A stretch of 31,976 nt of DNA from a virus. How positions within the stretch are numbered: position 1 is the first letter of the stretch; every line of letters begins with the position of its first letter. The position numbers and the translations under genes were made by a program. The notes beneath the pieces are model-generated. The model did no database searches. It was given only the letters and a program-made list of their open reading frames with translations, and was not told the DNA's origin. Below are positions 2,320-23,799 of the stretch, piece by piece. The stretch lies in the UHGV virus genome UHGV-0322013, one strand, 5' to 3'.

Positions 2320-3255
2320 TCAGTAGTTATGTACTGAAGGAGGTAATTCTTTATTCTTAAGTCTCATCCATGCGGAAAGATTCGTTGGTCCGTCTGGCTC
2401 ATTAATATCAACATCTCGTGTGTGATTGATTAAAACGTCTCTCGCCATTCCGATAACATACGAGAACTCATGACCGTAGTCGTAGCATCTGCCTGAATAG
2501 TTCGATTGAATTTGTTTTAGCGCCGGATACAGTTCGCGGAATAATGCCTGTGAGCGGTTGGCATAATCCCATAACCATACAAGGCTGTTTGCTTCTTTTG
2601 CAGAAAGCTCGTTGGTTTTCTTCTCTTGTTTGCCGATGAACTCGCCTTCGAGCGGAACGCGAGCTGCAAGTGACAGTGCTTCGGCAAACTGCTCCTCACT
2701 GATTTCTTTGTACGAACATCCAAAATGGGATTTCAGTGACGACCACATGGTGATCATCGCCTTAGCCTGTTTTTCTTTTGGCAGAGACTGACCGCGACTC
2801 ATGACGAGTTGTTTAATGGCTTCCTGCTGTTCAGTGGTGATTTTACCAGGCAACGCCTTTTTAGCTTTGCGTGGGTTAACTACATGGCCTTTAGTCCAGT
2901 AGTCATGCAGCACGCTAAAGCATTCCTCCTGGTACTGAATCAGTTTATCACGGATGTCAGCACGAACTTTCTCAGGGTTGATGCTGAACAGCCATCCATT
3001 TAACTTCTTCAAAGGAAGGCAGAGTAGCTTACGAAGCTTCCCATCAGCGGCAACCATGTTCATATGAACACAGTTGAATTTGCTAATCTGCTTCATGAGT
3101 TTTGTTTGCTGCGTTGACCAGCTCATTCCAAGGTTTTCAACGATTGGCTTCATCGCAACATATGCAACTCCGGCAGCCATGGCGGTGATAATTTGCTGAC
3201 CGTTGAATGGTACGTAAGAGGTGTTCACTGCTTCTAAAATTGCTATACTATTCAT
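2320..3255 (-). CDS. ant: Antirepressor Ant (P22 immI type)
   Basis: Track ORF 2320..3321; start placed at internal ATG ([46 protein letters not shown]...) which matches the P22 Ant N-terminus and has a GGAG RBS; 311 aa. Confidence 0.85.
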
Positions 3256-3320
3256 GTTGGTTTTTCTCCACGGATTTACTGACAACCGAAGCCCTGACTG
3301 TTCCCGCAGTTGGGGCTTCA
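3250..3320 (+). ncRNA. Candidate sar-like antisense RNA covering the ant ribosome-binding site (arc-ant intercistronic region)
   Basis: Plus strand has a TATACT -10-like hexamer inside the ant 5' end, then sequence antisense to the ant RBS and a stem (GAAGCCC / GGGCTTC). By analogy to P22 sar; boundaries are approximate. Confidence 0.3.
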
Positions 3321-3323
3321 ACT

Positions 3324-3485
3324 TTACGCGCCAATGCGCCCTTCCTTCTTAAAGCTGTCCATTACTCTCTGATAAATCTCAGAGTTAACAGATCGACCAT
3401 TCTCTTCCGCCACCTTGCGTACCAAATCCAATACTTCTTTAGGCCACCGCAAATTGAACTGCGGCATTTTGCTCATTCCTTTCAT
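3324..3485 (-). CDS. arc: Arc repressor (ribbon-helix-helix)
   Basis: Internal start of track ORF 3324..3548 gives [53 protein letters not shown] (53 aa), near-identical to P22 Arc as recalled. Confidence 0.9.
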
Positions 3486-3575
3486 ATTCACCTCACAATA
3501 TGGGTCCACCGTGGACCTATTGAGAATATAGTAGAGTGCTTCTATCATGTCAATACACTAACTTGGAGTGATGGC
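3486..3575. promoter_or_regulatory. immI divergent promoter/operator region: Mnt operator palindrome (about 3502-3518) and Arc operator (about 3528-3548) overlapping Pant and Pmnt
   Basis: GGGTCCACCGTGGACCT is a perfect palindrome matching the P22 Omnt core; ATAGTAGAGTGCTTCTATCAT is the reverse complement of the 21-bp P22 arc operator as recalled. Confidence 0.75.
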
Positions 3576-3827
3576 ATGGCTAGAGATGATCCGCACTTTA
3601 ACTTCCGTATGCCTATGGAAGTAAGGGAGAAATTAAAATTCAGGGCGGAGGCGAATGGGAGATCAATGAACTCTGAGTTGTTACAAATCGTCCAAGATGC
3701 TCTATCAAAACCATCGCCTGTGACTGGATATCGTGACGATGCAGAACGACTCGCTGATGAACAGTCAGATCTTGTTAAGAAGATGGTGTTTGATACGCTG
3801 AAGGATTTGTACAAAAAACCCACCTGA
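3576..3827 (+). CDS. mnt: Mnt repressor (ribbon-helix-helix; maintenance of lysogeny)
   Basis: Internal ATG of track ORF 3207..3827 gives MARDDPHFNFRMPMEVREKLKFRAEANGRSMNSELLQIVQDALSKPSPVTGYRDDAERLADEQSDLVKKMVFDTLKDLYKKPT (83 aa), matching P22 Mnt; GGAG RBS 8 nt upstream. Confidence 0.9.
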   Translation: MARDDPHFNFRMPMEVREKLKFRAEANGRSMNSELLQIVQDALSKPSPVTGYRDDAERLADEQSDLVKKMVFDTLKDLYKKPT

Positions 3828-12268: not shown

Positions 12269-13564
12269 TCACGCAGTCTGGTTAGGCAGACCAACACCAA
12301 TTGCCTCTGGTCGTACAGCACATGCTGAATACCACACAGCAATACGGCACTTACCAGACAGAGTGTTGATATCACCCTGCGTTGCGAAGATGCCGTTAAC
12401 ACCAATACCAGGAATGCTGAAGGAAGACGTTTTCATGCCAGCAAACAGTTCATGGGTTACCGGGATAGGCTGAGACAGCAGACGGATTGAGTCATCAGCC
12501 CAGAACACGTTAGCGGTAGTTGTTGCCACGTTCAGAACGTTTACCGGAGTGGTATCAGCAAGAGAGGTGTTTACGTTAGCGTAAGCCTTCTCTTCTTTTG
12601 TCAGTGACGCGTCATCAAGCGCAATCGGCTTCGGCGTGATTTCGATGTGAGTACCATCGATCACACGGGTGATTGAGAAAGTCGCATCATCAGTCAGCAC
12701 GTTCTTCGCCATCTGAGACAGGAATTTCACACCAGTGAAGCTGATTTTGTCGCCGCGCTTAAATCCGGTGGTGGAGGATACGGTCACCGTTGCAACACGG
12801 TTGTCGACGTTCTCTTTGTTACCATCGGTATCAAGAGTGTATGCCTGCGGCTTAAACTTCTGCGCACCAGAAACAGTTACACCAGTAGCGGTTGACTTGG
12901 TAACTGCCGGAAGTTTCGGTGAGCGAAGAATTTCATCAAAGCCAGCAATCTGACGCTGAATAGTACCGTTGCGATACGCTTCTTCAGGAACGCGCCCGAA
13001 GATGTCACCATCTACCAGGTTGCGGCCTGCTTTGCGGTAATCATCAGGGTTCAGGAAGTAACTGATGCCCATATCGCGGTTTAGCTCACGGGAGAACATC
13101 AGGCGCTCTGCATCAGACACAAAATCCCAGCCAGACAGGCCAGTAGATGGACCAATTGCGCGGGTATCGTGAACAACAAGTGAGCCCATTTCAGTTGCCT
13201 GTTTGGCAATTGCTGACTCAATGTTATTCGCCAGTTTTTTGGCGGATGCCTGGATGCGGCGACGGTAAGAACGCTCATCACGCAGATCATCTGCACGAAG
13301 CTCGAAGAAATCGTTATCCGGATCGCCCATGTTGCATTTCACGGACAGCTCCAGAATCCCGGTTGCGTTGCCAGTTAAATCCCAGCCAGTCTGAGTTGGC
13401 GCTTCCTGCTCAACAGGCATCCACACGGTATTGCTTGAACGTTGCATGGATTCTGCCGGAGGGGTGTATTTTGTCACTTTGGACGCCATTGGCGTCAGGT
13501 TCTGGACGGTTTCGATGATTTCATCGATAGCGTAAGTAACTAACTGCCCTTCTTTGAGAGTCAT
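12269..13564 (-). CDS. Major capsid (coat) protein, P22 gp5-like
   Basis: 431 aa; many blocks match P22 coat as recalled ([55 protein letters not shown]). Confidence 0.95.
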
Positions 13565-13631
13565 ATATTGAATACCTTACTTTCTTTATGTGCTATACTA
13601 TTGTTATATCAACATATAGCGCATTAGGGTT

Positions 13632-14153
13632 ATGAGCATGGAACTGAATGAATACTTCGAATACCGCGATGGTTCTTTGGTTTGGAAAGCCAGAAGCTCT
13701 GAATTTTTCAACAACAAAAAGAATCGCAACTATCACAACGTTTGGAATGCAAAACACGCTGGGAAAGTTGCTGGTCTTTTAGAAAGCAATGGATATATCC
13801 GCATAAGAATTAACGGCATTAAGTGGCTAGCACACCGCATCGTATGGGTAATGTTTAACGGAGATATTCCAGAAGGCATGGAAATTGACCATATAAATGG
13901 GATTCGCCACGACAACAGAATTGAAAATCTTCGTCTTGTGAAAAAATCAGCAAACCAAAGGAATAGAATCAAACTATCTAAAAATAACTCCAGCGGAATA
14001 TCTGGAGTTTACTTTTGCAACACGCGGAAAAGATGGATCGCTCATAAGCGACTGCTTAATGCAAGAGTGCAAAAAGTATGTTCTTCATTCGAAGAGGCGA
14101 AAGAAGTAATCAGAAAGTTTGACGAGGAAAACAACATCACGATATCGAAATAA
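13632..14153 (+). CDS. Free-standing HNH homing endonuclease with AP2-type DNA-binding region
   Basis: 173-aa plus-strand ORF with the HNH core EIDHINGIRHDNRIENLRLV...NQRNR and a following SGISGVYF...KRWIA segment; AT-rich; paralogous to the ORF at 23275..23799. Confidence 0.85.
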   Translation: MSMELNEYFEYRDGSLVWKARSSEFFNNKKNRNYHNVWNAKHAGKVAGLLESNGYIRIRINGIKWLAHRIVWVMFNGDIPEGMEIDHINGIRHDNRIENLRLVKKSANQRNRIKLSKNNSSGISGVYFCNTRKRWIAHKRLLNARVQKVCSSFEEAKEVIRKFDEENNITISK

Positions 14154-15065
14154 TTATCGAATTCCTTTATTCAGTTGCGCCTTGAGCTTGCGGTATGTCT
14201 CTACATCCCCTTTGTTTGCTGCCGCTTCCATCTGCTTTTCAATCGCAGAAATATTTGCAGCAACAGCGTGTCCCTGAATGGGTTCATCAGGTAACGGGGC
14301 TTCTGAAACAGGCTTGGCTCGAGGCTTGAGAGTTAAACGTTCTGACAGTCGAGTGAGTTCAATCAGCGCGGATTGCCCGTCCATCGCCAGCAACTGGCGT
14401 GTTTTCTCAGGATTAGCACCAAGGTGATACATGAGAGCAGCGGATTTCTCCGGGAAGAGGCGCATGATGTCGGCACCGACTGCTGGCGGCACCAGTTGCA
14501 TGAATGCATCCTCTTTCTCCTGATAGTCAGGGATATTGAGCTTTTCCGCTGCGTCGTAGTGCTTACGGGCTGCCTCGACGTATTGCGCTGATTGCTGGGT
14601 GAACTCCTGAGTTTTGCGACCCTGCTCGGCGACAGCCTGGCTTCGTGCGTCCATAGCCTTGATCTGCCATTCACTGTTTGCCTGCTGGAAGGCAGCCAGT
14701 GCGCGGCTCTGGTCATAGTCGTACTTAGCCAGCGCATCTTCGGAAAGATAATCGTTAGGGTCTGGTTGTTTTGGTAACTCAGGGTTCACCCGCAGGTGCT
14801 CCGGCAACTCCCCACGCTTAACCGCTTCCATCTGCTGCTCAAGCTCACGCTGGCGTTTGCGTTCGATGCGGCGACGGGCAAATTCAGCATTAGTTGCCGG
14901 GTATTGTTTTGGTTTCTCATCGTCTTTCAGGACAATCTCGAAGCCTTCTTCCTGACCTGCGTTGTCGTTGGCATTATCGACAACTAAGCCATCAGCAGAT
15001 GCCGCTGCATGATTGCCGGGCAGGGTTAATTCTTCAGAAGCCTGAATGTCGGTGGTTTGGTCCAT
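14154..15065 (-). CDS. Scaffolding protein, P22 gp8-like
   Basis: 303 aa as in P22 gp8, with long near-identical stretches ([99 protein letters not shown]). Confidence 0.95.
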
Positions 15066-15078
15066 GATTAACTCTCTC

Positions 15079-17244
15079 TTATTGAGGTGTCTCGGCTACT
15101 CCGCCGGAGGGGATTTGAACTTGACGCATAAGATTCGCGAAATCCATGCGTTGTGAATGAGTCTGGTCTGCATCTTTAAGAAGCAGCTCAGCGTTAGCAC
15201 GAGCATCTTTGCTGCGCTGTTGCTGGAATTGACCTACGAGCTTGAGGTACTCACGCAGTTCTGCCTGCTTGTCGAGGTCCATATTGTTGAAGATCTCTGC
15301 GATCTTCGCGGCGTTGAGTTGGTTTTGGGCTTCAACCTTGGCGGCCTCAACCTGAATCTGCGCCTGTTGGTTCTCTGCCTTGAGCAATTCAGCCTGACCT
15401 TGCAGAAGGATGCCCTGCGCCTGAATTTGCTCTGCTGATGGCTGCTGCGGCTGTTGTTGTGCCTGTTGTACCATCTCCATCTCTTCAGGTGTTTCTGGTT
15501 TCTTCAGCCCCATCATCACCAGTTGCTTGTTCGCGTACTCTCGCATCATCTCGACGCCTTTACCGTCAAGCAGCGTGAAGTATTGCAGCATCAGCATCTG
15601 GAACTCTGGAGTACCTTGCGGAACCTTGGTAAGTAACTCCTGAATCTCTGCGCGGTTCTGTTCCTTCATGCTCTGGAAGGATGGCCCAACGTCCGTATAG
15701 CACTCATAGCGACCGCGAATGTCGTTGAGTGTGACCACATTGCCGGACTGGTAATCTACAACTTGCGCGTAGAGTTGAACGTCTTTCTCGCTTCCGTCTT
15801 CAAGAGTCAGCGTTACATGGCGAGGAACGTCATAAATATCGTTGACCATTGAGGCATAAATCTCGCCATCACGTCGCATTGCGGTAGCCAGGTTATCCTG
15901 AAACACGTATGTCTCAAGGTCTGCCCGCATGTTCAGTTGATTGACGGTATCGAAAGCGACCTGACCGTTTGCTGCCTGCGCATCCACACCAAGACTAGCC
16001 ACCTCTTTCACTGCGTTGGTGGCAGCCTCAAGCATGTAAGCGTTGGCTTGCGGCACTTCAGGGTTTTCCATGTAGGAGATTGGACCAATCGGCAGGTCGT
16101 TACCGTTTTCATCGGTCCTGTTCTGCAGATAGTACGGATAGTCATCATTTCCACCGTACATGTATTCGTAGCCTTCGATTTGCTCAGGGAAGAAGGTCGG
16201 TTTCTTCTTCGGTGAACGAGCAACAATATCGGCGTTGAACGACATGATCATGTTACGAAGGCGTTGACCGTCTTTCGTCAGCCTTACCACTCCTTCGTAG
16301 CACTCCTTGTCACCAGCGAATGACCATTCGCCATACACTGGAACGATTGGAATATGCTCTCCGGCTATCTTCTCGCGGTCTTTCAGTATCTGCGTGCAGG
16401 TGATGATCGACTTATACACACGCCGACGCTTCACCTTACGCTCTGCTACCTTAATGAATCCACGATTAGCCAGGTCGTCGATGACGTCTTTGATATCCTG
16501 TTGGTAATAGCTGACCGGCTCACCTGTCAGCGGGTCGCGGTAGATGAAGACTTTCTCTTTCTTCTCTTCTACCTCGTAATACTCAGCGACGTAGACGACA
16601 TCATTCGATACCCAAGGAAACAGCCATGTGTCATTCGGATTCTGGAAAGATGGCAAGGTGTCCGGATCAATACCGTAATCCTCTGCGAACTCTTTCCAGC
16701 CATTGCGCGACAAGGCGTTAATCACCGTGCAGTGCTTAGCGTCGCTCTTATCCATCTGCTTGCTGTTGGCTTCCCATATGACGTGTGAGCAGGCTTCATG
16801 GATTGGCAGGCGTCGGATTACCTGATTGTTGCTTGTTGGATCGTTGTCTTCGTACTGCGTGACCAGACGCCATGCACCAACGCCTGACTCTATCTGCTCA
16901 CGAACGCCAACGTTAACGGCAATTTTTGCCGTGTTATGGCGCATATCAGTACGATACATCCCCATCAACACATCGGCTGCATCAGGATTAGCACCGTCTT
17001 TTGGTCGGAAGAGAACGTCGATAGGGTTCCGGCGCATCTCTGCGACCAGTTTCCTGACCACCGGGCGAACAACATCGAATTGTCCGCGATATTGCAGGGT
17101 CGTGTAGTTTGATAGCCAGTCATCCCATTGCGACACTCGGCTAAAATACAGGTCATTTGTCGCCTCGGTTCTGGCTTCATCGCTCGCCATCCAGTCTGCG
17201 TCAAACTTACACAGAATGGAATTGAGTCTGTTTTCGTCGGCCAT
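15079..17244 (-). CDS. Portal protein, P22 gp1-like
   Basis: 721 aa (P22 portal ~725), immediately downstream of the large terminase gene; Q-rich C-terminal barrel region. Confidence 0.9.
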
Positions 17245-18744
17245 TTAAGTTCTCCGTGCGATGGGCCTGATTGGGGCTGGTATCTTTTTCTCTTTTGGTT
17301 TTTTGATGTCGCGCATCATTTTTGCGAAGCGGCGCATCATGTATGCATAGCGAACGGCTGAGAGAACGTCATCGTTAAGCTTGACGATCTTCCCGTTTTC
17401 ATCACGGTGATAGAGGCGGAACTCCTCAAAGAATGGCTCACAGGTGTTGAATACTTTGAAGCGTCCATCGAGCATCATGTCGCGCAATTCAGTGATGCCA
17501 GGCTCAACAGCATTACCGCCATCAGGCCATGTCGCATGCTCCTGTAACATCATAAATCCAGCGTCTGCATACTGCCCTTTGAGCTGCTCACCGCCACCCT
17601 TCTCGTGCTGGTTTCCGTCATGAGGCCATGCAGTTGGCACTTTATGCGCCCATGATTTAACGGCCCCCCACGCCTGAACGGCTGTTTTTTCTTTCGCCTT
17701 CCACACGCGTGAAACGTAGATTGTGTCTGCGTCCTTATCCCACCAAAGCTGAACCTGCGCCTGCGGGTGATCCCATCCGAAATCCATCCCGCCAATTACG
17801 TAGAAGTGATCAGGACACTCGAACGGCTGACACTTAATCGTCTCTTCCGGTATCTGGAAGATTCGACCACTACCCATCGTAGGAATACCGCGAGCACGCG
17901 CCTCTCTCTCATGCTCAGGATAGGATGCGATGATTTGCTCTTTCTGCTCGTCGGTGTAGTGCTCAGCGTCATAGATGGTCATGTTGACCACTTTCTGAGA
18001 CTTGCTGGGATTCTTCAGGAACTTGGTAACAACGTCAGACATCCCCATAAGCGGGGTAAACGTCAGAATTGAGAATTGCCCGTATTTGTTGGTACGGGTA
18101 AGACCTTCACCATAAATGCTGTATGGTGGCTCTTCGTCAAACCACACGCCGTGGATTGTGTCACCCTGCCAGCGAGCACGGCCTTGCGAGTATGGTTTGA
18201 AGTAGCAGATTGAAATGCCATCTTCAACGCCATCAGCCGTGTGATGCTTAACCAGAAGATGATCAACAAGGTTCGGAAAGAAAGGAGACTTCTTCCAGCT
18301 AATGATGTCTTCTTTCGGTATGGAACCGTAGCCTGGCTCGTCATTCTCTTCGATACGACCGCACAGGATGCGTTGAGTCGTTTTGGTTACCGTCTCGTTT
18401 GTCTCGCCGCCAATCCAGAAGACAACAGGCTCATAGAAACGCTTACCTTTCCACTCACCGCCATATTTACCATCAGCAGGATAGCCTTTTGTGCCCGGAT
18501 AACGCCCTGTAAGGTGAAACGCGACTTCGGCAGCACCGGTAAATGACTTACCAAGCTGGTTACCAGCCATAAAACAGCGCTCTGGATAGTCATGCCCGGC
18601 GTCGATGAACTCACGCTGTTTGCTGTATGGCGTAAATTCATATAGCAGGTGTGTGTTCCGGTAGTTCTCTTCTTCTTCGAGTAGCTCGAGCAACTCGATT
18701 TGCTCTTCGTCGCTCAGGTTATCAAGAATCGCGTCCAGTTCCAC
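17245..18744 (-). CDS. Terminase large subunit, P22 gp2-like
   Basis: 499 aa, same length as P22 gp2; position between the small terminase and portal genes. Confidence 0.9.
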
Positions 18745-19210
18745 GGTTGAATAGCTCCTTGATACGAGAGCGTCGCTTATCGCGATCTCCCTTATCAGGT
18801 GTCACGTCTTCAACTTGCGACTGCTCTTTGAGGCCCAAATCACGGGCGATGATGTTAGCGTTGAGAAGGTCAGCGGCTGCGCCAGAAAATTTCTGGTCGT
18901 AGATGATGTCTTCCGCTCGTGATGTGACGTCAGAAAAACCTTCCATTGACCGGAAGGTTCCCCACGTTTGCCTGGTGATATCAAGGAAGGTACACAATCC
19001 TGAAATAGTCATGGCTCGCATCTTAGGGACATTAGCCTTAATTATTTCTCCCTGATATGAAAATACCTTACCCTCCCATAGTGGGTTATCATCAGCCCAC
19101 TCGAAGTATTCACAACAAGCTGCCCACAGCGCCTCAGGCGATTCGAATTTAGGATTTCGCCCATGACTACTGCGGGCCTCCCAAAATCGGTTGCCCTTTG
19201 GTGCTGCCAT
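18722..19210 (-). CDS. Terminase small subunit, P22 gp3-like
   Basis: 162 aa, same length as P22 gp3; N-terminus [46 protein letters not shown] matches as recalled. Confidence 0.9.
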
Positions 19211-22106: not shown

Positions 22107-22730
22107 CTAACGTGTGACCGCATTCAAAATGTTGTCTGCGATTGACTCTTCTTTGTGGCATTGCACCACCAGAGCGTCATACAGCGGCTTAACAGTGCGT
22201 GACCAGGTGGGTTGGGTAAGGTTTGGGATTAGCATCGTTACAGCGCGATATGCGGCGCTTGCTGGCATCCTGGAATAGCCGACGCCTTTGCATCTTCCGC
22301 ACTCTTTCTCGACAACTCTCCCCCACTGCTCTGTTTTGGCAATATCAACCGCACGGCCTGTACCGTGGCAATCTCTGCATCTTGCGCCCGGCGTCGCGGC
22401 ACTACGGCAATAATCCGCATAAGCGAATGTTGCGAGCACTTGCAGTACCTTTGCCTTAGTATTTCCTTCAAGTTTTGCAACGCCACGGTATTTCCCCGAT
22501 ACCTTGTGTGCAAATTGCATCAGATAGTTGATAGCCTTTTGTTTGTCGTTCTGGCTGAGCTCATGCTTACCGCAGAATGCAGCCATTCCGAATCCGGCTT
22601 GTGATTGCGCCATCCCCATAGCAGCCATCACATCAGTACCGGAAAGAGAGTCAGAAGCCGTAGCCCGTGGTGAGTCGCTCATCATCGGGCTTTTTGGCGA
22701 ATGAAATTTAGCTACGCTTTCGAGTCTCAT
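22107..22730 (-). CDS. Q: Late antiterminator Q (lambda Q)
   Basis: 207 aa beginning MRLESVAKFHSPKSPMMSDSPRATASDSLSGTDVMAAMGMAQSQAGFGMAAFCG, essentially identical to lambda Q as recalled; zinc-binding CRDCHGTG...CGRCKGVG. Confidence 0.95.
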   Translation of the reverse strand: MRLESVAKFHSPKSPMMSDSPRATASDSLSGTDVMAAMGMAQSQAGFGMAAFCGKHELSQNDKQKAINYLMQFAHKVSGKYRGVAKLEGNTKAKVLQVLATFAYADYCRSAATPGARCRDCHGTGRAVDIAKTEQWGRVVEKECGRCKGVGYSRMPASAAYRAVTMLIPNLTQPTWSRTVKPLYDALVVQCHKEESIADNILNAVTR

Positions 22731-23274: not shown

Positions 23275-23799
23275 TTATCCTCTCCCATGATTATGGTGAT
23301 ACCCCAATCGTGATTCCGCCAATTTTCTGGCATTAACGGCTAGAGATATGTCATCGTATAATCCAAGAAATATCTTTTTATTATCACTGTTTATATATGC
23401 GCCCCACTTTTTATTCTTCTTATAGTAGGCAACCCCCATTACTCCAGAGCGATTATTAATAGGCTTTTTTCTGTTCCTTGAATTCTGTTTATCATCTACA
23501 ACGCGCAAATTGCATATTCTGTTATCGCTTTTAACTCCATTTATGTGGTCAATTTCCCCATCAGGTTCACTTCCATAAAAGGATATCCATGCGATTCTAT
23601 GAGCTCGACAAACTTTTTTACTTACAGATATACGAACGTATCCTTTTTCATCTATAGAACCAGCAATCTTACCGGCATATGTTGAATTCCAGCACTCTCT
23701 TACACTTTCTCTTCTCTTGTATATAAACAAACCTGTTTCGCTATTATATTCATACAATTCATTGATTTCTTTTTGTGTTGGATATCTTTTACCGTTCAT
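23275..23799 (-). CDS. Free-standing HNH homing endonuclease with AP2-type DNA-binding region (paralog of 13632..14153)
   Basis: 174 aa; HNH core EIDHINGVKSDNRICNLRVV...NSRNR then SGVMGVAYY...KKWGA; AT-rich; start overlaps the ybcO stop (ATGA) and its stop abuts the rusA start. Confidence 0.85.
   Translation of the reverse strand: MNGKRYPTQKEINELYEYNSETGLFIYKRRESVRECWNSTYAGKIAGSIDEKGYVRISVSKKVCRAHRIAWISFYGSEPDGEIDHINGVKSDNRICNLRVVDDKQNSRNRKKPINNRSGVMGVAYYKKNKKWGAYINSDNKKIFLGLYDDISLAVNARKLAESRLGYHHNHGRG

Follow-up and report, generated by a model that had tools for sequence, protein, structure and literature searches.

Gene layout at the scaffold/coat junction and the encoded protein

The window analysed here is the whole 31,976-nt stretch of the virus genome UHGV-0322013, a P22-like, Lederbergvirus-type phage or prophage whose operons lie on the minus strand; its gene content includes a tailspike head-binding domain, immI genes of the ant/mnt type, terminase, gp3, a Q-type antiterminator, a DnaB-type helicase and a cI-type repressor. 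In the late block the portal, scaffold and coat genes all lie on the minus strand, and between scaffold and coat an open reading frame (ORF) is found on the plus strand, coding for an HNH-AP2 endonuclease and representing a candidate free-standing homing endonuclease gene (HEG). This ORF (13632-14153, 173 aa from the first ATG) was identified from the ORF listing and by Pfam, PHROG and PADLOC models. Its neighbours are a P22-type, gp5-like coat gene (12269-13564, minus strand; Pfam P22_CoatProtein, E 1.5e-164) and a P22-type, gp8-like scaffolding gene (14154-15065, minus strand; Pfam Phage-scaffold, E 2.1e-178). The TAA stop of the HNH gene (14151-14153) touches the scaffold stop, which appears as TTA at 14154-14156 (TAA on the minus strand), and these abutting stops (14151-14156) form the exact right boundary of the insert; at the other end, exactly 67 nt (13565-13631) separate the first HNH ATG from the coat ATG (13562-13564, minus strand). 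The insert segment, 13565-14153, is 589 bp long and has a GC content of 0.377, with 0.284 in the spacer alone, against 0.506 in coat, 0.530 in scaffold and 0.474 in the window. A first-pass annotation, made by a model from the sequence alone, had described an antisense 173-aa ORF between P22-type scaffold and coat genes, with its stop adjoining the scaffold stop, about 67 bp from the coat start and AT-rich relative to its neighbours, and all these points hold.

The gene is annotated as 'HNH endonuclease' in GenBank and RefSeq. RefSeq (PGAP) places its start at the second ATG, position 13638 of the window, giving 171 aa; an AGGG motif at 13626-13629 has the right Shine-Dalgarno (SD) spacing only for this second ATG, which is probably the real start.

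The ORF product matches Pfam HNH_3 (PF13392) over aa 66-110 with 78 bits (cut-off 24.8, E 3.9e-22), far beyond chance, as well as PHROG 99 HNH endonuclease (E 1.3e-50) and the PADLOC 'homing endonuclease' models (E 1.2e-11); no NCBIfam model is matched. The HNH (beta-beta-alpha-metal) core (13827-13961, plus strand) contains D86-H87, N99 and N108. In an alignment of 64 sequences, consisting of the window protein and 63 homologues, H68, D86, H87, D94, N95, R96, N99, L100 and N108 are invariant, and the D-H...N...N catalytic set (D86, H87, N99, N108) is intact in the window protein. Thus the HNH endonuclease identity proposed in the first-pass annotation is borne out, and no HNH catalytic residue is lacking.

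The C-terminal part, at about aa 121-166 (13992-14129, plus strand), consists of three strands followed by a helix and resembles an AP2-type DNA-binding domain in the family profile, in the AlphaFold2 (AF2) model and in Foldseek searches. Positions 32-108 of the family profile match I-HmuI (PDB 1U3E, E 1.4e-7), and positions 109-163 match plant AP2/ERF domains (WRI1, 7WQ5, E 3.3e-6; TEM1, 7ET4, E 1e-3). The AF2 model has a pLDDT of 89, with values above 90 for the nuclease core (strands E83-87 and E100-104, helix H105-112) and of about 90 for the AP2 module (E126-129, E134-141, E144-150, H153-166). The top PDB match of this model in Foldseek is I-HmuI 1U3E (probability 1.00), although the global TM to 1U3E is just 0.35, the domains being splayed; next are the AP2 domains 3IGM, 6SY0, 9HQV and 7WQ5, with weak E-values. 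The family profile and the predicted fold were needed for the AP2 assignment because the single sequence remains below threshold for Pfam AP2 (PF00847), with 17.7 bits against a cut-off of 33.3 and profile positions 1-19 aligned. The AP2 label of the first-pass annotation therefore holds at the level of profile and predicted fold, but not at the Pfam threshold for the single sequence, and the domain appears divergent. Altogether, the protein is predicted to be an I-HmuI-like HNH nuclease fused to an AP2-type DNA-binding domain, with a putative nuclease activity.

I-HmuI of Bacillus phage SPO1 and the window protein have in common the nuclease core, the N-terminal strand region and the D-H...N...N pattern; however, I-HmuI is intron-encoded and carries a helical C-terminal DNA-binding module, whereas the window protein is free-standing, ends in an AP2-type domain and is only about 23% identical. 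The same two-domain architecture is found in the HNH-AP2 endonucleases of phages, cyanobacteria and ciliates, which were reportedly proposed by Magnani and co-workers in 2004 as the origin of the plant AP2/ERF domain; compared with these, the AP2 domain of the window, sub-threshold in Pfam, is divergent. We know of no target site or homing context described for HNH-AP2 proteins from those sources. An intron- or intein-encoded endonuclease was also considered and rejected: the gene lies between two complete ORFs, and an Rfam scan of 13300-14400 at E <= 1 revealed no group I or group II intron and no other family, apart from two chance eukaryotic matches.

Empty sites and the coat 5' end

Phages Dewey and Louie carry the same segment with 99% identity, and the insertion goes unmentioned both in their genome announcement and in the BASEL paper. 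The comparison with relatives lacking the insert, suggested in the first-pass annotation, defined the empty site: IME10, APC_JM3.2, HZ41 and CurroJimenez/Bas106 are 97.5% identical in the flanks, 590 bp shorter and without insert. In these empty phages the stop of scaffold and the start of coat share bases (TAA and ATG, as TAATG), and coat has its SD (AAGGAAT) within the 3' end of scaffold; the coding strand reads ...GGAATTCGATAATGGCATTAAAT.... Of 43 distinct junction haplotypes, drawn from a wide range of P22-like lineages, 40 have the ATAATG junction, and therefore translational coupling of scaffold and coat through TAATG is the ancestral state.

The head module is present in 217 of 5426 complete E. 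coli genomes, 20 of which carry the insert; in IMG/VR, where the sample consisted of the best 80 loci by coat similarity, 11 are occupied. Occupancy is thus about 9-14% across both samples, and about 90% of the E. coli relatives are without insert. This distribution bears on a possible role as an accessory factor for terminase or DNA packaging, of the HK97-gp74 HNH type. In cos phages, HNH proteins encoded beside terminase are known to take part in packaging, and the window gene does lie inside the morphogenesis cluster; however, it is absent in about 90% of near-identical viable relatives, including the isolates IME10 and Bas106, its family (HNH_3/I-HmuI plus AP2) is not the HK97 gp74 type, it is antisense to the operon, and the terminase (17245-19210) is not adjacent, the portal gene (15079-17244, minus strand; Pfam P22_portal, E 1.9e-160) and scaffold lying in between. 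The packaging role was rejected on these grounds as extremely improbable.

Occupied and empty genomes also differ within the coat gene. Every occupied allele has 14 substitutions relative to the common empty allele (hapA) in coat nt 1-45, i.e. coat codons 1-15 (13520-13564, minus strand), and therefore the mobile unit seems to comprise both the insert and this flanking tract, which is also the predicted recognition and cleavage region in empty alleles. The window and IME10 coat genes differ at 38 positions, 14 in the first 45 nt and 24 in the other 1251 nt (binomial P 1.6e-11); seven of the ten codons changed in the tract, within codons 2-13, are synonymous, the amino-acid changes being A2T, N4K and L13I. 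When 16 distinct occupied haplotypes were compared with 64 distinct empty ones, divergence was 0.31 in coat nt 1-45 and 0.012-0.022 right beyond, equal to the diversity within groups; on the scaffold side no occupied/empty differentiation is seen from the first base on. Linkage between the tract and the HNH gene is complete in both IMG/VR (11/11) and E. coli (20/20). The insertion had been called precise in the first-pass annotation; on the scaffold side this is true to the base, while the coat side bears a replaced tract of 45 nt.

Nucleotide diversity, 0.007-0.025 in the flanks, drops 2-6-fold to 0.0038 in the insert, and the flanks form a freely recombining pool common to the occupied and empty states. 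Because of its low diversity, the spread of the insert within the E. coli lineage looks recent.

A further allele, hapB, is found in eight E. coli prophages, which are empty and have a perfect TAATG; it is of occupied type at coat nt 12-39 and of empty type at nt 4-9. In L005-L007 (AVS0578, NMBU_W05E18, ECONIH6) the hapB coat is 432 aa long, with three extra nucleotides inserted at about nt 420 of the gene, and occupied-type sequence is limited to nt 12-39.

At coat codons 5-7 the motif GAAGG(G/A)CAG is present in five of five occupied lineages and in none of 38 empty haplotypes (Fisher 1e-6, uncorrected for phylogeny), most of which have GAAGGTCAA. Empty alleles of the L010 lineage differ by 0-7% in coat nt 1-45 and by 7-13% in the rest of the gene, and the difference between occupied alleles and these empties reaches 16-24% in nt 1-45. 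L155, an empty allele of an L014-like lineage, natively encodes a coat starting with MTLKEGQ; since it natively encodes the amino-acid changes of the window tract, A2T, N4K and L13I look like donor sequence co-converted from an L155-like lineage. An 'MTL' coat N-terminus as a universal HEG signature was rejected, since L009 has MAL, L015 has MGL and the empty L155 has its native MTLKEGQ.

Same-site homologues and the spacer

A search of 5.8 billion proteins revealed as closest homologues P0002 (82% identity), P0003 (74%) and P0004 (59-61%), the rest being at 60% or less; in the remaining homologues above 50% identity the match covers about half to three-quarters of the protein. About one in five of the listed homologues has precomputed Pfam AP2 and HNH_3 domains. 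GTDB species representatives contain no close homologue, with 39-40% matches in Pseudomonas and Roseateles, and JGI metagenomes gave no same-site lineage beyond those already found. The genes for P0002, P0003 and P0004 are all antisense between P22-type scaffold and coat, with spacers of 60-67 nt, and the stop codons abut at two of the three loci. For the 82, 74 and 61% homologues, coat identity is 89, 72-74 and 69% and scaffold identity 75, 73 and 51%, respectively; HNH identity tracks both. Since homologues at the same junction and in the same orientation are found in diverged lineages and follow coat and scaffold identity, the association of the HNH gene with this junction is old. Thus the recent origin proposed in the first-pass annotation fits the spread within the E. 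coli lineage, as judged from low insert diversity, but not the association with the site; likewise the opposite picture, of an ancestral ORF conserved in relatives, is half realised, with same-junction homologues in diverged lineages and yet about 90% of close relatives empty.

The same junction is also occupied in L102 (IMG/VR UViG_3300038809_000005, 1365-2000) by a gene for a 178-aa HNH protein, 45-49% identical to the others, while its coat differs from the L009/L010 coat with a dS of 0.285 and a pN of 0.009. HNH genes with 45% identity on such similar coat backgrounds therefore imply, on sequence grounds, at least two independent acquisitions in one coat background (L009/L010 and L102). 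In L102 the insertion lies just past TAATG, leaving a residual ATG behind, and a hairpin, TTGGCAC-aataa-GTGCCA, is found between the scaffold stop and the HNH stop.

Between lineages the HNH genes have a pS of 0.69-0.94, i.e. saturated, and a pN of 0.10-0.26; the nuclease gene thus seems to have been kept functional over a long time under strong purifying selection. The dN/dS ratio of window versus L014 is 0.06, the same as for coat. These values also bear on the possibility that the gene is left over from an earlier invasion, inactive and in decay. A truncated version of 102 aa (P0005), with a different N-terminus and identical from GDIPEGM onward, is present in at least one E. coli genome in NCBI, so that at least one decaying or frameshifted copy appears to exist; however, the window, Dewey and Louie, five of five E. 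coli prophages examined and 11 of 11 IMG/VR copies all have the complete ORF, the catalytic residues are invariant and dN/dS is low. The pseudogene interpretation was rejected for these reasons as very unlikely.

A different explanation of the same-site homologues is that the gene belongs to the P22-like head module as an ancient accessory gene, passed on vertically, lost many times and now immobile. The purifying selection and the three closer homologues, which track coat and scaffold identity at the same site and in the same orientation, agree with it. Conversely, empty sites in all lineages have an exact TAATG, as in the 40 of 43 haplotypes above, and a random deletion of about 590 bp would rarely restore that overlap; insert diversity is lower than in the flanks, which show no occupied/empty differentiation; very different HNH genes (45%) stand on nearly identical coat backgrounds; and the AT-rich insert (GC 0.38 versus 0.51-0.53) marks a gene foreign to the module. 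Vertical inheritance with repeated loss is accordingly considered unlikely, and acquisition by homing is preferred.

The 67-nt spacer (13565-13631) would serve both strands, with a putative promoter and ribosome-binding site (RBS) for the HNH gene on the plus strand and a replacement RBS for coat on the minus strand. About 35 of its nucleotides, adjoining coat, are kept in four related same-site lineages, less clearly in L015 (61%). An extended -10-like element, TGCTATACT, was read by eye at 13591-13599 on the plus strand as a candidate promoter of the HNH gene; L009 has TGCTATACT as well, L014 TGCTATAAT and L102 TGATAAAAT, and L015 has TTGTATAAT. An imperfect inverted repeat (GCTATACTATTG / CAACATATAGC, 13592-13620) overlaps this element, the fold of the spacer having -11.7 kcal/mol and a z of -1.97. 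In each of the five lineages an inverted repeat or hairpin covers the putative -10 at an equivalent position, and its sequence differs from lineage to lineage; the regions concerned in the others are 1384-1449 in L014, 885-951 in L009, 2776-2835 in L015 and 1929-2000 in L102, and z-scores across the five range from -1.4 to -3.3 in four, with -0.7 in L102. The repeat could be an operator, for which the autorepression reported for I-TevI offers an analogy, or a hairpin of the late mRNA just upstream of the coat SD.

On the minus strand the insert supplies a new coat SD (TAAGGT, 13574-13579), 9 nt upstream of the coat ATG; equivalent AAGG motifs are present in L009, L014 and L015, and L102 has just AGGAA. 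RNA structure on the late strand around the coat start is not significant (z -0.53). Given the Q-type antiterminator (22107-22730) and the order of the genes, late transcription would cross the HNH gene antisense. Within the HNH ORF an 8-bp stem-loop (13986-14009), followed on the late (minus) strand by ATTTTTAG, looks like an intrinsic terminator facing late transcription; it encodes the SGISGV region of the AP2 domain. Dewey and Louie are viable isolates (PMC12243541, PMC11990801), and therefore the arrangement is tolerated.

Homing model, alternatives and other window features

The domain identity, the catalytic residues, the empty site, the linkage and diversity patterns, the purifying selection and the recurrence at the same site are all observed; from these we infer, with a probability of about 0.78, that segment 13565-14153 is a free-standing HEG with the conserved coat 5' end as target, including its cleavage activity, its exact target, its promoter and homing itself. 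In the simplest interpretation, the enzyme would recognise the scaffold-stop/coat-start region and cut within or beside coat nt ~1-45. An extended -10 promoter of its own would drive the HNH gene, in convergent orientation to the Q-antiterminated late operon; the protein would then recognise the scaffold-stop/coat-start sequence of empty P22-like genomes (...AAGGAATnnAATAATGGCnyTnAAyGAAGGTCAA...) and nick or cut the empty site, and repair by recombination with an occupied genome would bring in the gene and, with it, as much as about 45 nt from the 5' end of the donor coat. Occupied genomes would be immune, since their site is split by the insert and altered by mainly synonymous changes in coat codons 2-13, and the change from GGT-CAA to GG(G/A)-CAG, common to all five occupied lineages, may be the one conferring immunity. 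By its insertion the gene would break the ancestral TAATG coupling, compensating with an SD of its own for coat. Finally, hapB may be a short-tract repair product, in which conversion around a cut inside coat stopped before reaching the gene.

Several points weigh against this model. The HNH identity of the 82, 74 and 61% homologues tracks coat and scaffold identity, and a long vertical residence with occasional loss would fit this pattern as well as frequent homing does. The hapB empties may be the ancestral background on which the gene landed and not the product of partial conversion, and the common GG(G/A)CAG could have come by descent with the gene and not through selection for immunity, the lineages not being independent samples. 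A two-hexamer -35/-10 consensus scan of the HNH (plus) strand found no promoter for the gene, and both site-specific cleavage and super-Mendelian inheritance are predictions for this protein. Moreover, the free-standing HEGs characterised in T4 mostly have cleavage sites hundreds of bp away from the gene itself (PMC2988022); a target next to the gene, as proposed here, would be closer to that of intron-encoded enzymes than to that of free-standing T4 HEGs.

In T4-type phages, the co-conversion of flanking DNA that accompanies free-standing HEGs is well documented (PMC2988022, PMC2790892), as are marker exclusion and intronless homing (PMC2988022, PMC2790892). MobA-MobE of T4-type phages, among them MobE between nrdA and nrdB, resemble the window gene in being intergenic HNH genes with presence/absence polymorphism and flank co-conversion (PMC2790892, PMC2988022). 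However, cleavage by the free-standing T4 enzymes takes place hundreds to thousands of bp away from the gene that encodes them (PMC2988022), whereas the HEG-linked tract of the window ends within 45 nt of the insertion point; and, unlike in the T4 cases, the host is a temperate podovirus, the gene is antisense in a single antiterminated late operon and a translational coupling has been replaced. I-HmuI-like HNH genes of lactococcal Skunavirus phages cluster by insertion site and vary among close phages (PMC12724721), and here five lineages occupy one junction; Skunavirus is a different phage group with a different host, and marker exclusion was shown there by experiment. In P22-like genomes other HEG insertions have been described, in SEN22 between terminase and portal and as gene 31 of epsilon34 (PMC5261728, PMC2629481); these are sporadic HNH insertions too, at locations other than scaffold/coat.

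Alternatively, the nuclease may be kept mainly because it benefits the phage. Produced from a sigma-70 promoter belonging to the gene, possibly also during lysogeny, it would cut the 5' end of coat in P22-like phages without the gene that co-infect or superinfect the cell, and homing would be a by-product. Related phages are known to exclude each other's markers by means of HEGs (PMC2988022, PMC12724721), the gene is carried by temperate phages and prophages, it has been under long and strong purifying selection (dN/dS 0.06) with catalytic residues intact in five lineages, and its architecture has been kept, including an autonomous promoter-like element independent of the late operon. Against this, just ~9-14% of close relatives carry the gene, so that any advantage is not sweeping, and selfish persistence through repeated homing likewise maintains an intact ORF; moreover, a role in competition and a homing endonuclease are not mutually exclusive. 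As the main reason for its maintenance, benefit to the phage is doubtful.

The gene is always antisense and has its own promoter-like element with a lineage-specific dyad and a replacement coat RBS, and because of these features a broader interpretation can be tentatively advanced, though we hold it to be improbable: an old guild of HNH-AP2 nucleases on the P22-like scaffold/coat junction, expressed from the prophage, which would cut superinfecting relatives, excluding competitors and at the same time hopping to the incoming phage. In such a guild the promoter could be constitutive and the lineage-specific dyad could act as an autoregulatory operator.

The homing interpretation of the insert overturns no current understanding, and its main value is that of a ready-made experimental system. 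Research on free-standing homing endonucleases has gone far in virulent T4-type phages and has hardly touched temperate P22-like ones. Natural material for a direct test is available, with occupied and empty alleles whose flanks are 97-99% identical and with hapB as a probable partly converted, 'resistant empty' allele; the predicted target spans 20-45 bp at the start of the coat gene, and one E. coli K-12 host supports the growth of occupied isolates (Dewey and Louie) as well as of an empty one (CurroJimenez/Bas106). In addition, the insert replaces the conserved TAATG coupling with an independent coat RBS and would thus amount to a naturally occurring disturbance of scaffold:coat expression in a classic model of assembly.

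Two other regions of the window deserve mention. In the immI-like region, Arc and Mnt domains are found in one frame (3207-3827, plus strand) opposite an antirepressor with P22_AR_N/C domains (2320-3321, minus strand); this 206-aa Arc/Mnt ORF probably over-extends upstream of the real arc/mnt starts. In the nin region a second HNH_3 ORF (23275-23799, minus strand) codes for a 174-aa product, 42% identical to the HNH protein of the scaffold/coat junction, and lies directly upstream of rusA, sense to the early-right operon. In HK140, HK620, HK97 and HK022 its flanks are conserved at about 97% and the span is 525 bp shorter; because of this difference, the second HNH_3 ORF also appears to be a presence/absence insertion.

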